A DNA stretch of 54,955 nt from a bacterium (GTDB lineage Bacteria > Patescibacteriota > Minisyncoccia > Phycocordibacterales > UBA9973): the NCBI GenBank assembly GCA_037143195.1, contig JBAWZD010000004.1, positions 1 to 54,955 on the forward strand, written 5' to 3'. The position numbers and the translations under genes are program-made. Positions 1-49,369 of the stretch are shown here, one piece after another; the first letter of the stretch is position 1, and each line of letters opens with the position of its first letter. The notes beneath the pieces are model-generated. The model did not search any database and was not told where the DNA came from. It saw only the letters and a program-made list of their open reading frames with translations.

Positions 1-3000
1 TACACCTCATCCGATGGTGGAGCAACGTGGACTACTCACGGAGGAAGTTCAGGTTCTCATAACTGGACAGATATAGCTTCTTCCACAGATGGCGCTCATC
101 TCGTAGCGGCTTGTTCCGACGCCGGTAGAGGATATATCTACACCTCATCCGATGGTGGAGCAACGTGGACTAATCACGGAGGAAGTTCAGGGATTGGATA
201 TTGGTTGCGTGTTGCGTCTTCCGCTGACGGATCTCACCTTGTAGCTGTCACAGGCGACACTCTCCAATTATATACATCGATTGATAGCGGTGTAACTTGG
301 GTACGAAGAGTCGTAGATGGGTTTGAGGTTGCCTCTGATTCTAGTGGTATGAAACTGATAACTTCCTCTGCTTCCACTCACCAGACTTATACATCCACAA
401 ATGGAGGTGTGACTTGGATACTAGAACCGCTTACTAGTAACGGTCCAGTGGCATCAGATTCATCAGGTACTCAACTTGTAGCTCTATCTACTCTTGGATA
501 TATCAACGAAACTACAACCGCGTCAGTTACTCTCTCTGTAGTCGACACTGTGAGTAGTAGCGGGATTACACTCACAACAGCTGAATTGCACGGCAACCTT
601 GTTTCGAGCGGGGGATCTTCTGGTACTGAGGGTATCGAGTATGGTCTGACGACGAGCTATGGAACAAACGTCGGTGTGGCGTCGTTTCTCGCCGGAGTGA
701 CTGGCGCATATAGTACGGGGACACGCATCACAAGTCTCTCGTGTGGCACCACGTATCACTATCGTGCATGGGCAACGACTGCAGCAGGTACCGCTCACGG
801 GTCAGATATGACGTTTGCAACACTTCCATGTTTGGGTGCACCAATAGTCCTCACGGTGAGCGCTACAAGCATCACACCAAGCACTGTCACACTCACAGGA
901 AATCTCACCGATCTCGGAGGTGCACCAAGTGCAACTGCGGGATTCAATTATGGACTCACAACTACATATGGTTCGTCGGTCACGATGGCTGCTCCATATA
1001 CTGTGCCGACATTGTTTGTGAACACAACAGTGTCAGGACTCACGTGTGCGACGACATATCATTTCCGTGCGTACGCAACAAACACCGCGGGTACAGCCAA
1101 TGGCGCAGACATGACGTTTACAACATTGCCGTGTGCGATACGGATACCTATTGTCTCTACACTTTCCGCAACAACAGTTGGAACTACGACTGGATATTTG
1201 AATGCTCATCTTGCCGACGACGGAGGTGCATTAACTGTTTATCTTGGATTCAATTATGGACTTACCACTGCATATGGCACTTCTATTCCTGTCGCTTCTC
1301 TTGGTATGGGGCGATCGCCGTATGATTTTGTTTCTGGTCAGAGTGGTCTCTTGTGCAATACCCTCTATCATTACGAGGCGACTGCTACAAACACGGCAGG
1401 AACGGGTCTCGGGGGAGACATGACTTTTAGGACACTTCCATGTCCTACTGTTTCACCTACAGTACTTACTGTTTCTGCAACAAGTATTACAACAAGTACC
1501 GTCACACTCACGGGAAATCTCACCGATCTCGGCGGAGCACCAAGTGCAACTGCGGGATTCAATTATGGTCTCACCACTGCATATGGTTCGACTGTCACAA
1601 TGTCGTCGCCGTACACGGTGCCAACACTCTACGTAAATACAACAATCACCGGACTCACGTGTGGTACGCTCTATCACTATCGCGCATGGGCGACGAACTC
1701 AGTCGGCACGACGAATGGTTCTGATATGACGTTCACGACGGGGATTTGTCTCACTCCGCCAGCGGTCACGACGGACAGTGTGACTCCAGGAAGTACAAGC
1801 GCGACGTTTAACGGCACGATTGTGTCGCTTGGTGGAGCATCGAGTGCTTCAGTTCGCGGATTTTCATACAACACAACACCAACACTCGCGACGATCGGTC
1901 TCGATCCTGCGATTGATTCAGGCGTGGGAACATTTAGCACTGGTCCATACTCACTCACAATCACGGGACTCGCGTGCGCGACGACGTACCACTATCGTGC
2001 GTACGCGGAAAACACCACAGGCATGGGACACGGCGCAGATATGTCGTTTACGACACTCGCATGTTCGCTCGTAGCACCGACTGTGCACACCATGACAGCA
2101 ACTGTTTCAGGAGCGACAGCGACACTCACAGGTCACCTCGATTCATTCGGTATTGGCGCAAGTGGTCCGCTTACTTCTGCGTCAGTCGCATTCAATTTTG
2201 GAGGAACGACAGTCGCGTCATCGACACCAACACTCTCATCGCTCACGAATTTTTCGGGTACTGTCACCGTCGCATGTGGGTCAACCTATTCATATTTTGC
2301 CACTGCAATGAATGCGGGTGGGGGAGCAACGACCGACCTCACACCTGTCTCATTCACAACACCCGCATGTCCTGCAACAGCGCCGATAGTGGTGACTGAT
2401 CCTGCGACCGCAATCACGACAACGACTGCGACGATTAGCGGTCATGTCACTGCATTCGGTACAAGCGCGACATCAATCACGAGTCGTACACTGAGTTCAA
2501 GTTCTGGCGGAGCCGGTTCGACGATGACAGTCATCACGACACTCCCATCACCATTCTCTCAGTCACTTGTTGGACTCACCTGTAACACCACGTATACATT
2601 CACCGCAAGTGCGATGAACAATGCAGGTCTCACGGGTACAGGTGCAACGCTTTCGTTCACGACGAGCGCGTGTCCGATCGGCGGGCCGACGGTCACAACC
2701 ACTGCCGCGACAGCTATCACAACCACGACCGCGACAATAAACGGAAATGTCACGAGTCTCGGTTCCGGCGCAACGTCGATGACGAGTCGTGGATTCACGG
2801 GAAGTTTTGGTACACCAATCACGGCTACTGGATCGTTTGGTACAGGTACATTCTCGTCGGCACTTACTGGACTTACGTGTAATACAAATTACACATTCAC
2901 TGCAACGGGCACAAACAACGCCGGCCTCTCTGCTACAGGTGCAACGCTTTCGTTCACGACGAGCGCGTGTCCAATCGGTGCGCCGACAATCACGACGACC

Positions 3001-18463: not shown

Positions 18464-18886
18464 ATGAAAATAAAAATCAAAAAATTGAAAGATGGTGCAC
18501 GTTTGCCGAGTTACGCTCGGCCTGGCGATGTCGGCCTCGATATGTACTCGATGGAGACAGTCACGATTGCTCCCGGTGAGCACTACCGATTTTGGCACGG
18601 TTTTGCTCTTGAATTTCCCGAAGGATTTGCGGCGATTGTGAAAGACAAAGGCAGTATTTCAAAGGCAGGATTGCATACAATGGGTGGCGTCTACGACGCT
18701 GGATATCGTGGCGAATACAATACGCACCTCGTCAATTTGGGAGACGTACCGTACACGGTAGAGGCGGGAGACAAAGTTAGTCAGATTGTGATTTTCCCTG
18801 TCGCTATTGCAGAACTTGAAGAAACTGATAGATTGAGTGAATCAGAGCGCGGAGACGGACGGTTTGGCTCAACGGGGAAGCAATAA
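18464..18886 (+). CDS. dut: dUTP diphosphatase
   Basis: GDVGLDM, KDKGS, GVYDAGYRGE, SQIV and RGDGRFGSTG motifs. Confidence 0.95.
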   Translation: MKIKIKKLKDGARLPSYARPGDVGLDMYSMETVTIAPGEHYRFWHGFALEFPEGFAAIVKDKGSISKAGLHTMGGVYDAGYRGEYNTHLVNLGDVPYTVEAGDKVSQIVIFPVAIAELEETDRLSESERGDGRFGSTGKQ

Positions 18887-18887
18887 C

Positions 18888-20621
18888 ATGAAAGAAAAAC
18901 TCGAAACACTTTTACGCGACGCACTTACGAATCTCGGCATTATGGCCGAGACTATTGTGCTTGAACATCCTGCGGAGCTTTCGCATGGTGACTATTCGAC
19001 GAGCGTTGCGCTTGCTTATGCGAAGAAAATTGCGAATCCGCCAGCTGGCGGACCTCGCGCCCTCGCCGAAAAAATAGTCGCTGAACTATCAAGTGAGAAA
19101 CTCGCAGAACTCGGGATTGAAAAAATGGATATCGCTGGCGCTGGATTTATCAACTTCCACCTTTCAAAAGATTTTTTTGCGAAAGAAATCGAAACAATCA
19201 ATACACTTGGATCAAAGTGGGGCACGAATTCCGCCTCACGTGGCAAAAAAGTTATGGTTGAGTATACCGATCCAAATCCATTTAAGCCTTTTCATATTGG
19301 ACACTTGATGACGAATGCGATTGGAGAATCGACTGCGCGTATTTTTGAATATTCGGGCGCGAACGTAGTTCGCGCAAACTATCAAGGGGATGTGGGACTT
19401 CATGTTGCCAAAGCGATATGGTGTTTACTCAAAAAAGGTAAAGGGGACACAAGCCTCTCTGTGCAAGCACAGGCAGAATATATCGGTGCGTGCTATGTAG
19501 AAGGATCAACGGCATACGAAGAAAATCCTGACGCAAAAATTGAAATTGATGCTATCAACAAAAAGGTGTACGAAAAAGCAGATCCTGCAATCAACGACAT
19601 GTATGATTGGGGACGCAAAGTGACACTCGAAGCTTTTGAGACAATTTATGCACTCCTCGGCACAAAGTTTCAATCGAATTGTTATTTCTTCGAGAGTGTC
19701 ATGGCTCCAATTGGCAAGAAAATTGTTCAAGAGAATACGGGAACAGTCTTTGAAGAATCAGATGGAGCAATCGTTTTTAAGGCAGAAAAATATAATCCCA
19801 AATTACACACGCGTGTGTTTATAAACTCGCAAGGATTGCCAACGTATGAGACAAAAGAAATTGGTCTCACGGTTACAAAATTTGAACAGGAAAATCCAGA
19901 CCTTTCCATTGTAGTTACCGCGATTGAACAAGGCCCATACATGAGTGTCGTTCAAAAAGCGATCTCGCTAATTCATCCTGATTATGAATCACGCATGAAG
20001 CATCTCACGCACGGCATGATGCGTTTTGCGAGTGGCAAAATGAGTTCACGTAAAGGGAATGTCATTACGGGTGAATCACTTCTCCAAGATGCACGTGACC
20101 TTGTTCATGAGAAAATCAAAGAACGCGAATATGAGGAAAATGAACGTGATTCTATCGCGGCGCAAGTAAGTGTGGCTGCAATCAAGTACACCATTTTGAA
20201 ACAGCAACTCGGTGGGAATATTATATACGATGAGGAACACTCGGTGTCATTCGAAGGTGATTCCGGTCCGTATTTGCAGTATACAGCTGTGCGTGCACAA
20301 TCAATTCACGAAAAAGGGAAGAACGCTGGTCTCGTTAGTAGCGCCGTTCTCCCTGCGGAATGGAAGACAACATCACTCGAAAAATATCTCTACCGATTTC
20401 CAGAAGTCGTTGAGCGAAGTTACCAATTCCTCGAACCGCATCATATTGCAGGATATTTGCTTGAACTCGCTGCTCAGTTCAATTCATTCTACGGACAAGA
20501 AAAAATTGTTGATAGTACCGACGCCACATCACCATACAAACTCGCACTCACCGAAGCATTCCGCACCACCATGAAAAATGGTTTGTATTTGCTTGGTATC
20601 GAAATTCCAAATAAAATGTAA
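18888..20621 (+). CDS. argS: Arginyl-tRNA synthetase
   Basis: HGDYST, GAGFINF, VEYTDPNPFKPFHIGH, KMSSRKGN and GDSGPYLQY motifs. Confidence 0.97.
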   Translation: MKEKLETLLRDALTNLGIMAETIVLEHPAELSHGDYSTSVALAYAKKIANPPAGGPRALAEKIVAELSSEKLAELGIEKMDIAGAGFINFHLSKDFFAKEIETINTLGSKWGTNSASRGKKVMVEYTDPNPFKPFHIGHLMTNAIGESTARIFEYSGANVVRANYQGDVGLHVAKAIWCLLKKGKGDTSLSVQAQAEYIGACYVEGSTAYEENPDAKIEIDAINKKVYEKADPAINDMYDWGRKVTLEAFETIYALLGTKFQSNCYFFESVMAPIGKKIVQENTGTVFEESDGAIVFKAEKYNPKLHTRVFINSQGLPTYETKEIGLTVTKFEQENPDLSIVVTAIEQGPYMSVVQKAISLIHPDYESRMKHLTHGMMRFASGKMSSRKGNVITGESLLQDARDLVHEKIKEREYEENERDSIAAQVSVAAIKYTILKQQLGGNIIYDEEHSVSFEGDSGPYLQYTAVRAQSIHEKGKNAGLVSSAVLPAEWKTTSLEKYLYRFPEVVERSYQFLEPHHIAGYLLELAAQFNSFYGQEKIVDSTDATSPYKLALTEAFRTTMKNGLYLLGIEIPNKM

Positions 20622-20625
20622 TCAT

Positions 20626-21039
20626 ATGTCACTCATCACCGATATTCAAAAAATTAAAAATCCTACGTTCGTCCTTGCTGTAATAGCGCTGCTGTTACTC
20701 GTGACTCCGGGGTTCTTGTTCGTGTTCTATTTCAATCGACCACTTTTTGAACAGTTGGAGTTCCTGAAGCTTTTATTTTTGTCGCTCGGATGCATGACCC
20801 CGCTCGTAGCGTTTCATTTTTTTACAGCGCCATCAATGCATGAGGAGGGGAGTAATACATCAAACGAAAATTTCACTTCACTCATATTTTCGATTCTTAT
20901 ATCCTCAGCAGCAATGTATCTGTCACTTTTCGCAGCATATTGTTTTGGTGAATCTCTTCACTATGGGCACGGATTGAGAATTTTTATTGGGACACTCGTA
21001 ACGATCGAGGTTGGTTTTTTCTGGGGTCGCTCTCTCTGA
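20626..21039 (+). CDS. Small AT-rich membrane protein
   Basis: Four hydrophobic segments; the ORF sits between argS and the ileS promoter. Confidence 0.65.
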   Translation: MSLITDIQKIKNPTFVLAVIALLLLVTPGFLFVFYFNRPLFEQLEFLKLLFLSLGCMTPLVAFHFFTAPSMHEEGSNTSNENFTSLIFSILISSAAMYLSLFAAYCFGESLHYGHGLRIFIGTLVTIEVGFFWGRSL

Positions 21040-21069
21040 AGAACAAGCAAAAAACAGAGAAAAAATAGC

Positions 21070-21097
21070 TTGCAATTTCAATGGTTTCGATTATTAT
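21070..21097 (+). promoter_or_regulatory. Sigma70-type promoter of the ileS leader
   Basis: TTGCAA-16 nt-TATTAT. The predicted +1 near 21104 coincides with the start of T-box Stem I. Confidence 0.7.
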
Positions 21098-21103
21098 GAG
21101 ACA

Positions 21104-21290
21104 AGCGTTGATGAGGCTATCACCTCGGAGCTCCTAGGAAGAAATTCGCCTGATATGCGGATATAGACCCTAGCGGGAGGTCCCGTCATAGACTCATAAC
21201 AAGCCCGAAAGGGGAAGCAAGGTGGTACCACGAGAAAGCTCGTCCTTGTATGGCAGAATTCTGCTGTACGGAGACGAGTTTTTTATTTAC
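21104..21290 (+). ncRNA. T-box riboswitch (Ile specifier AUC, ultrashort Stem I, transcriptional terminator)
   Basis: K-turn Stem I with loop CTATCA, Stem II, IIA/B, Stem III, antiterminator AAGG-TGGTACC-ACGAG-AAAG-CTCGT-CCTT, and a terminator ending GACGAG-TTTTTT. Confidence 0.93.
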
Positions 21291-21330
21291 CCATTACGCG
21301 TTCGATTATTAACGATAGCAATCAAAATAT

Positions 21331-24300
21331 ATGTCCGAAGAAATCAAAAAATCCCCAGCCGCAGAAAAAGAAGAAAAGATCATGCAGTTTTGGCGCGACA
21401 ACAAGACGTTTGAACAGTCGCTCACCAAAGACGCGCCAAAAGGGAACTACGTTTTCTACGATGGTCCGCCATTTGCGACAGGACTTCCTCACTACGGACA
21501 TATTCTCGGCTCAACCGCCAAAGATGTGATTGGTCGGTATCAAACGATGCAGGGTTTTCGCGTGCCACGCAAATGGGGGTGGGATTGTCACGGATTGCCG
21601 ATTGAAAATATTGTTGAAAAAGATTTGGGACTTTCTGGTCACAAAGAAATCGAAGCACTCGGCGTAGAAAAATTCGTCGAACACGCGCGAAGCAAAGTGC
21701 TCACGTATGTGCACGATTGGAAACGCACCGTCGAGCGCATTGGTCGCTGGGTGGATTTTGATGGTTCGTACAAGACGATGGACAATAGTTTCATCGAAAG
21801 TGTCTGGTGGTCACTCGGCGAGCTCAACAACAAAGGCCTCATCTACGAAGGTGTACGCGTGCTCGCATACTGTCCACGCTGTGAGACACCAATCGCAAAA
21901 TCTGAAATTGCGATGGACAATAGTTACAAAGACATTGCCGATATTTCTGTCTATGTAAACTTTCCACTTGTCGAAGATCCAAATGTGAATTTGATTGGCT
22001 GGACGACGACACCATGGTCGCTCCCTGGAGATATCGTGCTTGCAGTGAATGCAGAGGCAAGATATGTCAAAGTCAAAATCGCAGGCGACTCAAGTGGCAA
22101 ATCATATGTGCTCGCAAAGGATCGTGCAGAAGCGGTGCTCAAAGAAAAGCCGTTCGAGATCGTCGAAGAATTTTCTGGTACTGCACTCCTCGGCAAAAAA
22201 TATATGCCACCGTTTGATTACTATACAAAAGGTGAGGCGCTCCTCGCGAATCCAAAATCGTGGACTGTCGTTGCGGCTGATTTCGTAACAACGACCGACG
22301 GTACTGGTATCGCACACGAAGCACCTGCGTTCGGTGAAGATGATGCTACACTCGCGCAAAAGGAAAATATTCCATTCATTGTGCACGTTACGCCGGAAGG
22401 CAAATTTGCACCAGAAGTCACTGACTTCGCAGGTATGGCTATCAAGCCAAAATCGGCCGAGAAAGATGGCCACATGAAAGCCGATATCGAGATCATCAAA
22501 TATCTCGCGGCAAAGGGTTTGCTTTTCAAAAAAGAAAAGATCATGCACTCGTACCCGCACTGCTATCGTTGTGAAACTCCACTCTTCTATTACGCGCTCC
22601 CAAGTTGGTTTGTGAATATTCAGAAAGCAAAAGCGAGAATGCTCGAGACTGCCAAAGACATGAAGTGGATTCCAGAGCATCTCAAGGAAGGTCGCTTCAA
22701 AAATACGATGGAATCAGCACCGGATTGGAACATTTCCCGCAATCGCTACTGGGCAAGTCCACTTCCATTTTGGAAATCTGCCGAGGGCAAACTCATGTTT
22801 GTCTCATCGGTTGAAGACTTGAAATCAAAAACAAAGAAGTCTGGTAACACGTATCTTGCGATGCGTCACGGTCATGCTGAACACATGGTCGCACAAGTCA
22901 TGGCGAGTCTCGAAAACGATTCATATCCACTCACGGAACAGGGAAGGAATGAGGCGACGAGTCGCGCCGAAGAATTGAAGGCTCGCAAAGTCACAAAGAT
23001 TTTTGCTTCGCCACTCATTCGCACACAAGAGACGGCGCAGACCGTTGCGGATATTCTTGGTATCGCACGGGAAGACATTGTGACTGACGACCGTCTCCGC
23101 GAATATGATTTTGGTGAATGGAATGGCAAACCATTTCAGGAATTCATCGACTATCGTAAAAATAATGTGAAAGACTATACCGAGCAACTCGGCGCGTCAT
23201 CTCTCCTTGAGACCAAAAAGCGTTTTGGTGATTTTCTCTACGAACTTGAATCAAAGTACGCGAACGAAACGATTCTCATCGTGACGCACGGTATTTTCTT
23301 TGAGACGAGCGCTGCGCTCATCCAAGGTGCTGACAATGCACGATCGCTCGAAATTCTCTTCGATGTGTTTAATTTGAAACGCATTCAACCAGGTGAAGTG
23401 CGCGAGCTTGCGTTCGTTCCACTGCCACACAATGCGAGTTATGAACTTGATTTGCATCGACCATATATTGATGCAATCAAGCTTGTTGATGAAGCGGGGA
23501 CAGAGTACACCCGTATCAGTGAAGTCATCGACTGTTGGTTTGAATCTGGTTCGATGCCATTCGCACAAGATCACTATCCATTCGAGCGTCCAAATTGGAA
23601 GAGCGAAAATTTCCCTGCGGGATTCGTCGCTGAATACATCGCGCAGACACGTACGTGGTTTTATTACACACACGCTGTTTCGACGATTCTCTTTGACGCT
23701 GCACCATTCAAGCATGTCGTGACGACAGGAACATTGCTCGCTGAAGACGGACAAAAAATGTCCAAGTCCAAAGGCAACTATCCCGACCCATGGATATTGT
23801 TCAACAAATATGGTGTTGATCCACTCCGCCTGTATCTCATGTCGAGTCCGCTCATGAAAGGTGAGGACGCAAACTTCTCTGAAAAGGCCGTGCAAGATAT
23901 CGCTTCGAAGCTCATCGGACGATTGCAAAATGTGCTCACGTTCTACGAACTCTACCGCGATGTGTCGCTTGAAAAAGAAGTTACTTCGTTTGAAGCACAG
24001 AACGTGCTTGATATCTGGATCCTTTCACGCCTTGCTGAATTGGTCACTGATGTGACGAAGGGAATGGAGGCATATGATATGACGGAATCGACACGACCAT
24101 TTGATTTGTTTGTCGACGATCTTTCGACATGGTATTTGCGTCGCTCACGCGAACGCATCAAGGACGGTGAGACCGATGCGAAGAAGACATTGTATGTTGT
24201 GTTTACAACTGTCGCGAAATTACTTGCACCATTTGCACCATTTACGGCTGAAGATATTTGGCAACGTTTGAAGCACGGAGACAGTGTTGATTCAGTACAT

Positions 24301-24816
24301 TTGACCGAGTGGCCAACTGCGGGAGTAGTCGTCGAAGAAGTGCTCATGGCAATGAAGACAACACGTATGGTGGTGACGTATGGATTGGAAGCTCGTCAAA
24401 AAGCGGGGCTCAAAGTTCGCCAACCGCTCGCACAGCTGAAAGCAAAAAACATGAAGCTCGGTGGTGAATATACTTCAATCGCGATGGATGAATTGAATGT
24501 GAAAGAAATCGTTGAGGATACGACACTCGAGACCGATGTGTGGCTTGATACGACGATTACTGATGCACTCAAAAAAGAAGGGGAATATCGTGAACTCGTG
24601 CGCGGCGTACAGGAGCTGCGCAAGACCAAAGGACTGACTCCGAGCGATGTCGTAACACTCACGCTTTCGATGAATGCAAAAGATATTGTTGCTTCGTTTG
24701 AAACTGAGATGAAAAAGACCGTGCTTGCTCGCGAGATTGTTTTTGTTGATTCATTTGAGAATGGAGAGGCGATCGAGGTCGCGGGAGCGACCGTGCTTGC
24801 ACGTGTGGAGAAATAG
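21331..24816 (+). CDS. ileS: Isoleucyl-tRNA synthetase type 2 with an inserted histidine-phosphatase domain
   Basis: FYDGPPFATGLPHYGH, WGWDCHGLP, WNISRNRYW, DLHRP and KMSKS motifs, no C-terminal Zn finger, and a ~190-aa RHG...THG insert. Confidence 0.96.
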   Translation: MSEEIKKSPAAEKEEKIMQFWRDNKTFEQSLTKDAPKGNYVFYDGPPFATGLPHYGHILGSTAKDVIGRYQTMQGFRVPRKWGWDCHGLPIENIVEKDLGLSGHKEIEALGVEKFVEHARSKVLTYVHDWKRTVERIGRWVDFDGSYKTMDNSFIESVWWSLGELNNKGLIYEGVRVLAYCPRCETPIAKSEIAMDNSYKDIADISVYVNFPLVEDPNVNLIGWTTTPWSLPGDIVLAVNAEARYVKVKIAGDSSGKSYVLAKDRAEAVLKEKPFEIVEEFSGTALLGKKYMPPFDYYTKGEALLANPKSWTVVAADFVTTTDGTGIAHEAPAFGEDDATLAQKENIPFIVHVTPEGKFAPEVTDFAGMAIKPKSAEKDGHMKADIEIIKYLAAKGLLFKKEKIMHSYPHCYRCETPLFYYALPSWFVNIQKAKARMLETAKDMKWIPEHLKEGRFKNTMESAPDWNISRNRYWASPLPFWKSAEGKLMFVSSVEDLKSKTKKSGNTYLAMRHGHAEHMVAQVMASLENDSYPLTEQGRNEATSRAEELKARKVTKIFASPLIRTQETAQTVADILGIAREDIVTDDRLREYDFGEWNGKPFQEFIDYRKNNVKDYTEQLGASSLLETKKRFGDFLYELESKYANETILIVTHGIFFETSAALIQGADNARSLEILFDVFNLKRIQPGEVRELAFVPLPHNASYELDLHRPYIDAIKLVDEAGTEYTRISEVIDCWFESGSMPFAQDHYPFERPNWKSENFPAGFVAEYIAQTRTWFYYTHAVSTILFDAAPFKHVVTTGTLLAEDGQKMSKSKGNYPDPWILFNKYGVDPLRLYLMSSPLMKGEDANFSEKAVQDIASKLIGRLQNVLTFYELYRDVSLEKEVTSFEAQNVLDIWILSRLAELVTDVTKGMEAYDMTESTRPFDLFVDDLSTWYLRRSRERIKDGETDAKKTLYVVFTTVAKLLAPFAPFTAEDIWQRLKHGDSVDSVHLTEWPTAGVVVEEVLMAMKTTRMVVTYGLEARQKAGLKVRQPLAQLKAKNMKLGGEYTSIAMDELNVKEIVEDTTLETDVWLDTTITDALKKEGEYRELVRGVQELRKTKGLTPSDVVTLTLSMNAKDIVASFETEMKKTVLAREIVFVDSFENGEAIEVAGATVLARVEK

Positions 24817-24817
24817 G

Positions 24818-25312
24818 ATGCAGGTACGACCGCTCATCATGTTTGATTTTGATGGTGTCATTGTTGATACACTCGGTATTTCACCTAGCCCAAAACGGAC
24901 ACTTACTGTGCCAGAAAGTATTCAACAATTAGTAAAAAAACTTGTTTCCAATTTTCATCTCGCGATTATTTCAAGTTCCCAAACTTCGACAATCAAAGAT
25001 ATCATTGCGCGCGAGGGCGTAGCGGATTGTTTTTCTGATGTGCTCGGCTATGACGTAGACTCAAGCAAAGTTGTTCGCATCAAAATGATGCTTGATCAAT
25101 ATGGCGCGAAACCAAACGAGACGGTATTCATTACTGACACAAGCGGAGATATATACGACGCACATGAGAGCGGTGTCCCTGCTATTGCTGTCACGTGGGG
25201 AATGCAAAGTCGCGACACACTTGCTGACGCAAAACCGCTCACGATTGTAGATTCTGTCGCTATCCTCGAACAAGAGATTCTCGGATTTTTTTCTGGTACA
25301 ATAGGGGAATGA
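24818..25312 (+). CDS. HAD-superfamily hydrolase with minimal cap
   Basis: FDFDGVIVDT, ISSS, K, ITDTSGD and AVTWG motifs. Confidence 0.85.
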   Translation: MQVRPLIMFDFDGVIVDTLGISPSPKRTLTVPESIQQLVKKLVSNFHLAIISSSQTSTIKDIIAREGVADCFSDVLGYDVDSSKVVRIKMMLDQYGAKPNETVFITDTSGDIYDAHESGVPAIAVTWGMQSRDTLADAKPLTIVDSVAILEQEILGFFSGTIGE

Positions 25313-29135: not shown

Positions 29136-30488
29136 ATGAACGAAAACACAGACAACCTCATGGAGAAGATTCAGTCGCTTGCCAAGCGTCGTGGCTTTGT
29201 ATACCAAGGCTCGGAGATATACGGTGGCCTCGCAGGTACATGGGATTACGGCCCACTCGGTGTCGCCCTCAAGAACAATATCAAAGACGCATGGCGCAAG
29301 AAATTCGTCTCATCCAAGAGCGATATGTATGAAGTCGATGCGGCCATTCTCATGAACCCAAAGGTCTGGGAGACGAGTGGACACGTCGCGGGATTTTCTG
29401 ATCCGCTTGTTGAGTGTCCAAAATGTAAAAATCGTTTTCGTGAAGACCAAGTCGAGGATTCAAAAAAGAATCCTGGCACAAAAGATTGTCCAAATTGTGG
29501 CACGACGCTCGGCACCGCACGTCAATTTAATATGATGTTCGCGACTCAGATTGGTGCGGTGCAGGATTCATCTTCTACTGTATATCTTCGTCCAGAAACT
29601 GCAGCCGGCATGTTCGTGAATTTCAAAAACATCATCGACAGTTTCCATCCGAAGCTTCCGTTTGGTATGGCACAGATTGGGAAGGCATTCCGCAACGAGA
29701 TCACTCCGCGCGACTTCGTATTTCGCGTACGTGAATTTGAGCAGATGGAAATCGAATATTTTGTGAAGCCAGAAGATTGGCAGAAATATTTTGAATATTT
29801 TAAAGATTCGATGCTCGAATGGATGGAAGAAGTTGGTATCGACATGCAGAAAGTTCACGAGCTTGAAGTCGCAAAAGAAGACCTTGCGCACTATTCAGAC
29901 CGCACCGTCGATTTCGAATTTGATTTCCCATTCGGACGCAAAGAATTGTTTGGTCTCGCATACCGCAAAGATTTCGATCTCGGTAGTCACTCACGTGGCT
30001 CAAGTGTCGACCTCTCATACCAAGACGAAGAATCAAAATCAAAGATTATGCCTCACGTGATCGAGCCGTCGTTTGGCGTTGATCGCAGTGTGCTCGCCTT
30101 GCTTTCATCTGCCTATGCAGAAGAAGAAAAGGAAGGGGAGACGCGTTCATATCTCAAATTCAAACCCTCAATCGCGCCAGTCATTTGTGCCGTCAGTCCG
30201 CTCCTCAAGAACAAACCCGCTCTCGTCGAGAAAGCACAGTACGTCTACGGCATGCTCAAGGCTGAATTCGGTCGCGTCATGTGGGACGACAATGGCAACA
30301 TCGGCAAGCGCTACCGCCGTCAGGACGAAATCGGCACACCATGGTGCATCGTCATCGACTTCGACACGCTCGGTGAAGATCATGCCGATTTCAAAGACAC
30401 AGTCACCGTGCGTGATCGTGATACTGGATCACAAAAGCGTGTTCCGATTGCCGACCTCATCACTACTATTCGCGCAGAACTTGTATAA
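29136..30488 (+). CDS. glyQS: Glycyl-tRNA synthetase, alpha2 (eukaryote-like) type
   Basis: EIYGGLAGTWDYGPLG, YLRPETA, QIGKAFRNEI, FRVREFEQME and IGKRYRRQDEIG motifs. Confidence 0.97.
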   Translation: MNENTDNLMEKIQSLAKRRGFVYQGSEIYGGLAGTWDYGPLGVALKNNIKDAWRKKFVSSKSDMYEVDAAILMNPKVWETSGHVAGFSDPLVECPKCKNRFREDQVEDSKKNPGTKDCPNCGTTLGTARQFNMMFATQIGAVQDSSSTVYLRPETAAGMFVNFKNIIDSFHPKLPFGMAQIGKAFRNEITPRDFVFRVREFEQMEIEYFVKPEDWQKYFEYFKDSMLEWMEEVGIDMQKVHELEVAKEDLAHYSDRTVDFEFDFPFGRKELFGLAYRKDFDLGSHSRGSSVDLSYQDEESKSKIMPHVIEPSFGVDRSVLALLSSAYAEEEKEGETRSYLKFKPSIAPVICAVSPLLKNKPALVEKAQYVYGMLKAEFGRVMWDDNGNIGKRYRRQDEIGTPWCIVIDFDTLGEDHADFKDTVTVRDRDTGSQKRVPIADLITTIRAELV

Positions 30489-32822: not shown

Positions 32823-34277
32823 ATGTCCAAAAACTTCTACCTCACCACGACACTTCCGTACGTAAATGCCGACCTCCATATGGGTCATGCGCTTGAATTC
32901 GTGCGTGCTGATATCATCGCTCGATCCAAAAAGGCTGAAGGATATGAGGTTTTTTTCAATACAGGGACTGACGAGCACGGCATGAAGATATATGAGAAGG
33001 CTGTCGCGAATGGCCAGACACCACAAGAATTCGTCGACGCGAGCTTCGCTCGCTTCCAAGACTCTGTCAAAATCTTCGGTCTCGACGAAAGTATCATTCA
33101 CTACGCGCGCACGACGAATCCGAGTCACGAGAAAGCTGCCCAAGAATTCTGGCGTCGCTGTGACCAGAATGGATATATCTACAAAAAGAATTACCAAACG
33201 AAATATTGTGTTGGTTGTGAGGAAGCAAAGACAGATTCAGAACTCGTGAACGGTGAGTGTCCGGTACACCCAGGTCGCGCACTTGAGATCATCGAAGAAG
33301 AAAATTATTTCTTCAAATATTCTGCGTTCACCGACAAGCTCACTGCGTTTTATGCGACGCGTCCAGATTTTGTTGTGCCCGATTTTCGTTTTAATGAAAT
33401 CAAAGCATTCGTCGCACGTGGACTCGAAGATTTTTCTATCTCACGCTTGAAGACCAAAATGCCATGGGGGATTCCGGTCCCAGGTGATGACAATCACGTT
33501 ATGTATGTGTGGTTTGATGCACTCACAAACTATATCTCCACGCTCGGTTGGCCTGATGCTGAAAGTGTCGCAAGTGGCGATTTCAAAAAGTTTTGGGTTG
33601 AAGGAACACCAACGCAGTACTGTGGCAAAGACAATCTTCGTTTCCAATCAGCAATGTGGCAAGCCATGCTCATGGCAGCCGACGTACCCAACTCGCATCA
33701 GATAGTCATCAACGGATTCATCACAGCTGACGGCGGAGTGAAGATGAGCAAGACACTCGGCAACGTCGTCGACCCAAAAGATATTGTCGCGGAATATGGC
33801 ACTGACGCACTTCGATTTTTCCTTGCGAAGGAAATCTCAAGTTTTGAGGATAGTCCATTTACACCGGAGCGATTTAAAGCTGCGTACAATGCGCACCTTG
33901 CGAACGGAATTGGGAATTTGTCCTCTCGTATTTTGACGCTTTCAGAAAAACATCTTTCTAAGTGTCCGAGTCTCGAGGCGTCAGTTGTGCCAGAACAGTT
34001 CATTCAAGAAATCCATGCATTTGATATTCAAAAGGCAACAACATTTGTATGGTCCAAAGTACAAGAGCTCGACCAGACAATACAGTCGACCGAACCATTC
34101 AAGGTGGTCAAGCTAGACGAGGTGAAAGGCAAAGAACTCATAACCGATCTCGTTGTGAAGCTCAATACGATAGCTCTGATGCTTCAATCAATCATGCCCG
34201 CAACGGCAACAAAAATACTTGCTCAAATTCAAGCAAACAAGAAACCAGAAGCACCACTCTTTTTGCGTAAAGAATAA
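32823..34277 (+). CDS. metG: Methionyl-tRNA synthetase (short form)
   Basis: TTTLPYVN..LHMGHA, GTDEHG, YVWFDAL and KMSKTLGN motifs. Confidence 0.97.
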   Translation: MSKNFYLTTTLPYVNADLHMGHALEFVRADIIARSKKAEGYEVFFNTGTDEHGMKIYEKAVANGQTPQEFVDASFARFQDSVKIFGLDESIIHYARTTNPSHEKAAQEFWRRCDQNGYIYKKNYQTKYCVGCEEAKTDSELVNGECPVHPGRALEIIEEENYFFKYSAFTDKLTAFYATRPDFVVPDFRFNEIKAFVARGLEDFSISRLKTKMPWGIPVPGDDNHVMYVWFDALTNYISTLGWPDAESVASGDFKKFWVEGTPTQYCGKDNLRFQSAMWQAMLMAADVPNSHQIVINGFITADGGVKMSKTLGNVVDPKDIVAEYGTDALRFFLAKEISSFEDSPFTPERFKAAYNAHLANGIGNLSSRILTLSEKHLSKCPSLEASVVPEQFIQEIHAFDIQKATTFVWSKVQELDQTIQSTEPFKVVKLDEVKGKELITDLVVKLNTIALMLQSIMPATATKILAQIQANKKPEAPLFLRKE

Positions 34278-49088: not shown

Positions 49089-49159
49089 TCTTAGGATTAT
49101 TTAAGGTAAGTAGTTTCTGTTAGAGTTTTAGTGAGTTTCTCGAAACTTAAAATCGAAAC

Positions 49160-49189
49160 AAAAAACCACCCCGAAAGGGGTGGTTTTTT
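49160..49189 (+). terminator. Intrinsic terminator
   Basis: AAAAAACCACCCC-GAAA-GGGGTGGTTTTTT. Confidence 0.9.
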
Positions 49190-49219
49190 GTTTGTCTGCG
49201 CTATATACTATAGGCACCT

Positions 49220-49369
49220 ATGTACGTAAAACACTTCCTCAAAATGCTCTTCGGCCTCATCCTCATGGCCGTCATTGGTATCGGCGGACTTTTTGTCGCC
49301 AACTATTACTCCGGCCAATCAGGCAACCCAACCGCAGGGGGAGTCATCAACTCGCTTCAAGGCAAGTAA
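49220..49369 (+). CDS. 49-aa single-TM small protein (below the ORF-track cutoff)
   Basis: MYVKHFLKMLFGLILMAVIGIGGLFVANYYSGQSGNPTAGGVINSLQGK, with TATACT 10 nt upstream. Confidence 0.65.
   Translation: MYVKHFLKMLFGLILMAVIGIGGLFVANYYSGQSGNPTAGGVINSLQGK

Follow-up and report, generated by a model that had tools for sequence, protein, structure and literature searches.

Must a T-box leader that reads its tRNA with an ultrashort Stem I act on translation, or can such a sensor also be coupled to an intrinsic transcription terminator? T-boxes are the textbook case of one RNA sensing another, and kinetics are invoked to explain why the transcriptional forms have a long stem and the translational forms a short one: the terminator decision falls within seconds, and contact with the tRNA elbow would be needed. 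Transcriptional T-boxes generally require a long Stem I with a double T-loop, and classes III and IV are mostly translational (PMC7583486; PMC10482949). The question arises at positions 21104-21290 of the window, that is, the whole 54,955-nt stretch of DNA analysed, where the original prediction had placed the elements of a T-box leader upstream of the isoleucyl-tRNA synthetase gene ileS. By sequence reading, every one of these elements was found in its place. Together with a promoter, they are as follows.

21070..21097, forward strand: promoter of sigma-70 type, with the -35 element TTGCAA (21070-21075), a 16-nt spacer and the -10 element TATTAT (21092-21097)
21104..21132, forward strand: ultrashort Stem I on a K-turn, placed by alignment to RF00230 and by covariation
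21134..21173, forward strand: Stem II, with the lower helix CUAGG/CCUAG (21134-21138 with 21169-21173) and an upper hairpin
21174..21193, forward strand: Stem IIA/B pseudoknot region, CGGG-AGGU-CCCG-UCAUA-GAC, its pseudoknot pairing putative and read by eye
21204..21213, forward strand: Stem III, CCC-GAAA-GGG, followed by purine-rich AAGCAA
21219..21247, forward strand: antiterminator, with helix A1 (AAGG/CCUU), helix A2 (ACGAG/CUCGU) and the loop AAAG
21239..21284, forward strand: intrinsic terminator, a hairpin of 17 bp (21239-21278, -22.6 kcal/mol) with U6 directly after it (21279-21284)
21331..24816, forward strand: ileS, the regulated gene, encoding a type 2 IleRS of 1161 aa (TIGR00392, 832 bits)

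The transcription start is predicted at about 21103-21105, a few nucleotides 5′ of the K-turn, with the promoter ending 6 nt before the latter. The K-turn consists of AGC-GUU-GA (21104-21111) paired with GA-GCU (21128-21132)—that is, a C-stem AGC/GCU, a bulge GUU, and tandem GA/GA pairs—and carries a Stem I helix of 5 bp (21112-21116 with 21123-21127) closed by the apical loop CUAUCA. Within this loop lies the isoleucine specifier AUC (21119-21121), followed by the conserved 3′ purine A21122, and the specifier agrees with the regulated gene being ileS. Stem II contains an S-turn-like internal loop, AAGAA (21139-21143) opposite AUAGAC (21163-21168), the S-turn reading UAUAGA in the window versus AGUAGA in its relatives. 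Stem III is present in the window but missing from many relatives. Between helices A1 and A2 of the antiterminator lies the T-box bulge, the 7-nt UGGUACC (21223-21229), whose UGGU fits the discriminator A73 of tRNA-Ile. The antiterminator folds at about -6 kcal/mol, and since its 3′ strand is also the 5′ strand of the terminator hairpin, the two folds are mutually exclusive. The ileS ATG at 21331 lies 46 nt 3′ of the T-run and 52 nt 3′ of the hairpin end, and no Shine-Dalgarno (SD) sequence was found before it (no GGAG or AGGA upstream).

With a probability of about 0.85, the window leader is an isoleucine-specific T-box that would control ileS by transcription attenuation, with tRNA binding, charge sensing, and termination all ascribed to it by homology. 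Judged by sequence, its sensor is that of the actinobacterial class III, and its output that of class I. The folding of the leader gave z = -3.3 relative to shuffled sequences. The minimum free energy fold of the whole leader, in which Stem I pairs with downstream sequence, was rejected, the T-box structure having covariation support.

A comparison with Rfam by Infernal, as proposed in the original prediction, returned a match to RF00230 that runs end to end over 21099-21250 (model positions 1-219) with a score of 53.6 bits, and with an E-value of 5.3e-11 when a 501-nt stretch is searched and of 5.8e-09 for the window as a whole. In this alignment, 76 consensus positions of the distal Stem I are replaced by 6 nt, a deletion that alone accounts for the score being below the RF00230 gathering score of 93 bits. 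At the gathering threshold, nothing was returned at the locus, and the match was seen only by its E-value. The gathering score was likewise reached by none of 20 relatives tested, making routine annotation blind to such leaders.

The product of ileS also matches a MupA/MupB-like model at approximately 700 bits. Its nearest relatives are found in Nomurabacteria and Paceibacteria metagenome-assembled genomes (MAGs), with 59-94% identity, bearing out the CPR-like host that had been proposed. Inserted mid-enzyme, at about residues 507-680 (22849-23370 of the window), is a histidine-phosphatase (phosphoglycerate-mutase-like) domain matching PF00300 with 107 bits on 22840-23420, and also the dPGM and cobC-like NCBIfam models.

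With the first 508 IleRS residues as the query, 80 related loci from distinct Nomurabacteria/Paceibacteria (Patescibacteria) species were collected. The motif GGTGGTACC was found upstream of ileS in 50 of these loci, in most of them about 100 nt before the start. A covariance model, R1, built from 23 aligned CPR leaders with five hand-set helices, matches the window once (112 bits) and matches 51 of the 80 related loci with 42-132 bits, in every case upstream of ileS and on the same strand. The survey of ileS leaders across Patescibacteria that had been suggested for this locus has thus recovered the leader in 51 of 80 Paceibacteria loci. By R1 at E<=1, no T-box was found upstream of ileS in the other 29 loci (among them L010, L012-L014, L016, L022, L025, and L027) despite a similar IleRS, suggesting that the leader has often been gained or lost within the lineage.

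The pairing within these leaders was observed to be maintained through compensatory change. The four inner pairs of Stem I covary among GC, AU, CG, GU, and UA in 52 sequences, with both sides changed in 2-20 sequences each. Cells with double changes number 72 in the structure versus 25 +/- 5 in shuffles, the observed score was reached by none of 500 shuffles, and helix registers that had been slid gave far lower covariation scores. The A1 and A2 pairs of the antiterminator are 100% paired in 51 sequences, and the C-stem pairs of the K-turn are covarying and 94% paired in the R1 alignment; 62% of cells are paired in the lower helix of Stem II, the register of which is imperfect in that alignment. 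In the 46-47 relatives with a readable specifier loop, the specifier AUC is followed by A, or by G in three of them, and in roughly 46 of the 51 relatives it lies in an apical loop of 5-8 nt. In addition, 35 of the 51 relatives have a promoter-like TTGNNN-16..18-TANNNT in the approximately 60 nt preceding the leader, versus 2 of 51 control windows, the end of the -10 element lying 3-8 nt before the leader in most of those with the motif. The recurrence of this architecture with covariation in 51 other species, the E-value of 5e-11, and the folding z of -3.3 together indicate that the architecture is not due to chance.

These same observations bear on whether the leader could be a decayed, non-functional relic of a T-box lying beside an ordinary constitutive attenuator or terminator. 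The RF00230 score of 53.6 against a gathering score of 93, as well as the 29 of 80 close relatives without any T-box, would be in line with such decay; however, one deletion fully accounts for the low score, the specifier with its purine, the K-turn, the S-turn region, the UGGUACC bulge, and helices A1 and A2 are all intact, and the motifs are invariant or covarying in 51 species with IleRS identities down to 60%. Decay is thus an extremely unlikely explanation.

Apart from this common plan, several structural variants were observed. An intermediate Stem I, in which the codon AUC lies in a bulge at the side, below a short distal helix, was found in L021, L024, L032, and perhaps L009, and a second hairpin follows Stem I in about a dozen relatives. 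In L018, L033, L034, L041, L066, and L075, a continuous helix (UGAAGGGG...CCCCUUCG) takes the place of the GA/GA pairs of the K-turn, and an extra hairpin precedes the closing GCU, making the base of Stem I a three-way junction. The minimal members (L011:916-1029, L042:1303-1416, L045, L051, L053, and L054) span 113-116 nt, counted from the K-turn to the antiterminator's end, and a single-stranded linker, UAAAUGAGAAGUAAGCAA, leads in them from Stem II to the T-box bulge without a Stem IIA/B pseudoknot or Stem III; the motif AAUGAGAAG is conserved in these members. The T-box core at 21214-21248 of the window is common to at least three other contigs of the source metagenome, which diverge from it on both sides, implying that it is present in several organisms that occur together.

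Other scans of the window were concerned with the three further aminoacyl-tRNA synthetases encoded in it:

18837-20621: ArgRS
29136-30488: GlyRS
32823-34277: MetRS

That argS, glyQS, and metG lack a T-box, as had been claimed, agrees with the scans, which returned no RF00230 match (E<=0.01) and no R1 match (E<=1) at any of the three genes in the window. No tRNA genes were found in the window by ARAGORN. A simple terminator scan of the window missed the hairpin at 21239-21278 because of an internal mismatch, and a window-wide terminator scan gave 27 sites versus 19.5 +/- 4.5 in shuffles and was uninformative. Three metatranscriptomes of the source sample held no transcript contigs from 20500-25000, and thus neither support nor oppose the predicted 3′ ends. 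The sub-threshold Rfam match to BSnc120 at 49143-49226 on the reverse strand (30.8 bits, E 0.003, where the gathering score is 114) is probably a chance match.

The expression platform was examined in the 51 related leaders, with a terminator defined as a hairpin whose free energy is -15 kcal/mol or lower together with at least 5 T in 8. A hairpin and T-tract of this kind were detected in 49 of the 51 CPR leaders, and the two failing leaders had been over-extended by the script, a hairpin and T-run being present on inspection; in all, terminator picking over-extended five or six loci and missed that of L045, each of which has a terminator by inspection. The median free energy over the 51 leaders is -25.1 kcal/mol for the terminator versus -6.6 kcal/mol for the antiterminator. 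Both medians lie inside the ranges given in TBDB for transcriptional T-boxes, namely -19.5 +/- 7.9 kcal/mol for terminators and -7.4 +/- 4.2 kcal/mol for antiterminators. For 40 related terminators, RNAalifold predicted 18 consensus pairs, of which 14 show compensatory changes, and the upper stem was seen to differ in sequence between lineages with its pairing always kept. In relatives, the T-run and the ileS ATG lie 0 to 381 nt apart, with a median near 20, and the ATG follows the T-run by 0-10 nt in about nine of them (e.g., L031 at 4, L032 at 5, and L062 at 6). Among 47 CPR leaders, only 5 were found with an SD-like motif no more than 20 nt from the start, and in four of these it is the terminator's own 3′ strand.

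These features were weighed against a translational T-box as in Actinobacteria, in which the hairpin would be a sequestrator of the ribosome-binding region that is freed by uncharged tRNA. Such a mechanism would be suggested by the homology of the sensor half to translational ileS T-boxes, and by the hairpin's 3′ strand (GGAGACGAG; in relatives AAGGACGAG), which is SD-like because of its complementarity to the CCUU of helix A1 and lies no more than 20 nt from the ATG in 5 of 47 relatives. It is nonetheless very unlikely here: the window hairpin ends 52 nt before an ATG that has no SD at the start; the gap in relatives can be anything between 0 and 381 nt, and in three of them it holds a SemiSWEET gene (a putative one in two of the three); and the T-tract found directly after the stem in 49 of 51 leaders would have no role in sequestration. 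Moreover, the energy gap of about 17-19 kcal/mol between hairpin and antiterminator is far above what would be expected for a reversible bistable switch (PMC11297988).

A dual control, with the hairpin terminating transcription and also limiting translation initiation where the ATG abuts the U-tract, would draw on the nine relatives in which no more than 10 nt separate the T-run from the ATG, and there the hairpin may have a secondary effect by masking the start region. It is inapplicable to the window, with its 46-nt gap; furthermore, hairpin formation is precluded as soon as tRNA has fixed the antiterminator, and the spacing is not conserved, leaving dual control an unlikely reading. Transcription attenuation is therefore the reading preferred for the window leader.

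The distance between terminator and ileS was also observed to accommodate other sequences. A SemiSWEET gene (86 aa; PF03083, 33 bits) lies between the terminator of the isoleucine T-box and ileS at L003:1239-1499, and putative SemiSWEET inserts in L007 and L060 are suggested by gaps of 264-291 nt and similar N-terminal sequences. With this arrangement, SemiSWEET and ileS would form one operon under the control of the T-box, a hint that the SemiSWEET protein has a transport role related to isoleucine. At L069:1072-1459, 381 nt separate the terminator from ileS and contain a 106-aa open reading frame on the opposite strand, and this stretch may have been inserted. The gap measures 120-160 nt in L015, L017, L024, L038, L043, L051, and L059.

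For attenuation by the window leader, the following sequence of events is proposed. RNA polymerase would start a few nucleotides before the K-turn, and the nascent leader would then display AUC in the apical loop of its 5-bp Stem I. The Stem II and IIA/B domain, involving the S-turn of Stem II, would clamp the codon-anticodon duplex formed with tRNA-Ile(GAU). Such recognition, independent of the tRNA elbow, has been solved for the Nocardia and Mycobacterium ileS T-boxes. When the bound tRNA-Ile(GAU) carries no amino acid, the ACCA at its 3′ end would pair with the UGGU of the T-box bulge and hold the weak antiterminator (about -6 kcal/mol), and with the antiterminator held the polymerase would read through into ileS. 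When the tRNA is charged or absent, the stronger hairpin (about -23 kcal/mol) with its U6 would instead capture the 3′ strand of the antiterminator, and transcription would stop at about 21284.

The kinetics of such a switch deserve consideration. The class III decoding module has been reported to bind tRNA with a Kd of about 24 nM without elbow contact (PMC10482949); thus affinity would not be the obstacle, and the association rate might be. Co-transcriptional T-boxes have been argued to need a long Stem I and double T-loop for fast tRNA capture (PMC7583486), from which it follows that a short-stem sensor may be kinetically poor at a terminator. In the long-hairpin CPR leaders, about 55 nt lie between the bulge and the release point, and, by way of speculation, this stretch may lengthen the decision window.

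With respect to what is known, the combination of a short Stem I with a terminator is atypical according to reviews, yet, as predicted from these leaders, is the rule in this lineage. Sherwood's 2015 abstract is said to describe "many", not all, of the atypical leaders as predicted to be translational, so a few cases of short stem with terminator may already be listed. No paper on T-boxes together with Patescibacteria, Parcubacteria, or Saccharibacteria was found in the searchable literature, outside which lies the primary paper on ultrashort stems (Sherwood 2015). In TBDB, a short-stem model was run only on Actinobacteria, to which Rfam hits with truncated stems were added, and the short-stem entries are labelled putatively translational, without prediction of terminators (PMC7778990). 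The chances are about even that Patescibacteria hold a lineage-wide class of T-box, coupling class III elbow-independent decoding to an intrinsic terminator, that Rfam-based annotation has missed entirely.

If these leaders are truly co-transcriptional, then the claim that transcriptional T-boxes need the double T-loop of Stem I is wrong or incomplete, and compensation by long terminators, pausing, or slow polymerases would be possible. Members of about 113 nt without Stem IIA/B and Stem III would then be the smallest natural T-boxes. With a large natural family that has both a short sensor and a terminator, the kinetic argument for how Stem I is built can be put to a direct test, and such a family would provide very compact tRNA-responsive transcription switches for engineering. 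T-box regulation would also be present in CPR bacteria, from which, to our knowledge, few regulatory RNAs have been described, and a class III/terminator model would be worth adding to annotation pipelines.

For comparison with Actinobacteria, 80 ileS loci, including those of Mycobacterium, Amycolatopsis, Cellulomonas, and Actinomyces, were retrieved with the IleRS of one actinobacterial MAG. Although built from CPR sequences only, R1 finds the leader in 76 of these 80 loci. Over Stems I, II, IIA/B, and III and the T-box bulge, the window can be aligned to leaders of Mycobacterium and Planosporangium in every column, with its Stem IIA/B aligning to ACGGG-N4-CCCGUCACAGC of those leaders. The GAAGAA...(G)UAGAAC of Stem II is kept in both CPR and actinobacterial leaders, and the apical loop has the form CNAUCA in both phyla. 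The outputs differ: a T5 run was found in 0 of 76 actinobacterial leaders and an SD-like motif no more than 18 nt from the start in 75 of 76, in agreement with the earlier description of ultrashort-Stem-I ileS T-boxes in Actinobacteria as translational, the contrast with CPR leaders being somewhat inflated by a choice of starts that favoured SD-bearing candidates and by a high G+C content that disfavours T-runs. Most actinobacterial leaders have a gap of 23-60 nt between antisequestrator and start. Despite the inflation, the contrast in predicted output between CPR and Actinobacteria is categorical. With the sensor aligning to actinobacterial ileS T-boxes and a terminator in 49 of 51 CPR leaders, the mixed architecture put forward in the original prediction, with class II-like recognition and class I-like output, was upheld. 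On the further suggestion that leader and ileS may travel as one unit, the findings are mixed: the same types of leader and IleRS occur in both phyla, the N-terminal halves of the IleRS proteins being 43% identical between CPR and Actinobacteria, but 29 of 80 CPR relatives are without the leader.

The closest translational counterpart was found in a MAG labelled Micrococcaceae, where an A+T-rich (46% G+C) ultrashort ileS leader (L201:419-564, the same as L167) scores 89.9 bits with R1, versus 24-67 bits in other Actinobacteria, and has an SD-masking helix with GUGAAGGAAG six nt before the ATG. A pattern scan with ATCA-N5-GAG-N50-80-AAGGTGGTACCNCG gave at least 120 matches, and is not an unbiased phylum census; the matches listed are mostly long-Stem-I ileS leaders of Bacillota, and also include CPR short-type leaders with terminators and one actinobacterial MAG, the source of the IleRS query for the 80 actinobacterial loci, with a short-stem leader ending in an SD-masking helix.

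Among known systems, class I T-boxes (RF00230; the B. subtilis tyrS type and Bacillota ileS) have in common with the window the antiterminator/terminator competition, the U-tract, and Stems II, IIA/B, and III. Unlike the window leader, they possess a distal Stem I with an AG bulge, a double T-loop (IDTM), and a specifier internal loop, and a long Stem I is present in the ileS leaders inspected from Erysipelotrichia, Izimaplasma, and other Bacillota. Class IV T-boxes, with the intermediate Stem I of the Actinomyces type, were seen in the Actinomycetaceae loci L269, L248, L221, and L205, and their AUC side bulge recurs in L021, L024, L032, and perhaps L009; the window, however, has the apical-loop form, and the CPR intermediates end in terminators. 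In the class III ileS T-boxes of Mycobacterium tuberculosis, M. smegmatis, and Nocardia farcinica (PDB 6UFG, 6UFM), the K-turn and the 4-5-bp Stem I with an NNAUCA loop are shared with the window, and, as compared by sequence, so are the GAAGAA/GUAGAA S-turn of Stem II, Stems IIA/B and III, the T-box bulge, and the gene ileS itself. Whereas these actinobacterial leaders carry an SD-like motif and no T5 run, the CPR leaders, from hosts of another phylum and base composition, carry a 17-21-bp hairpin with a U-tract and are mostly without an SD.
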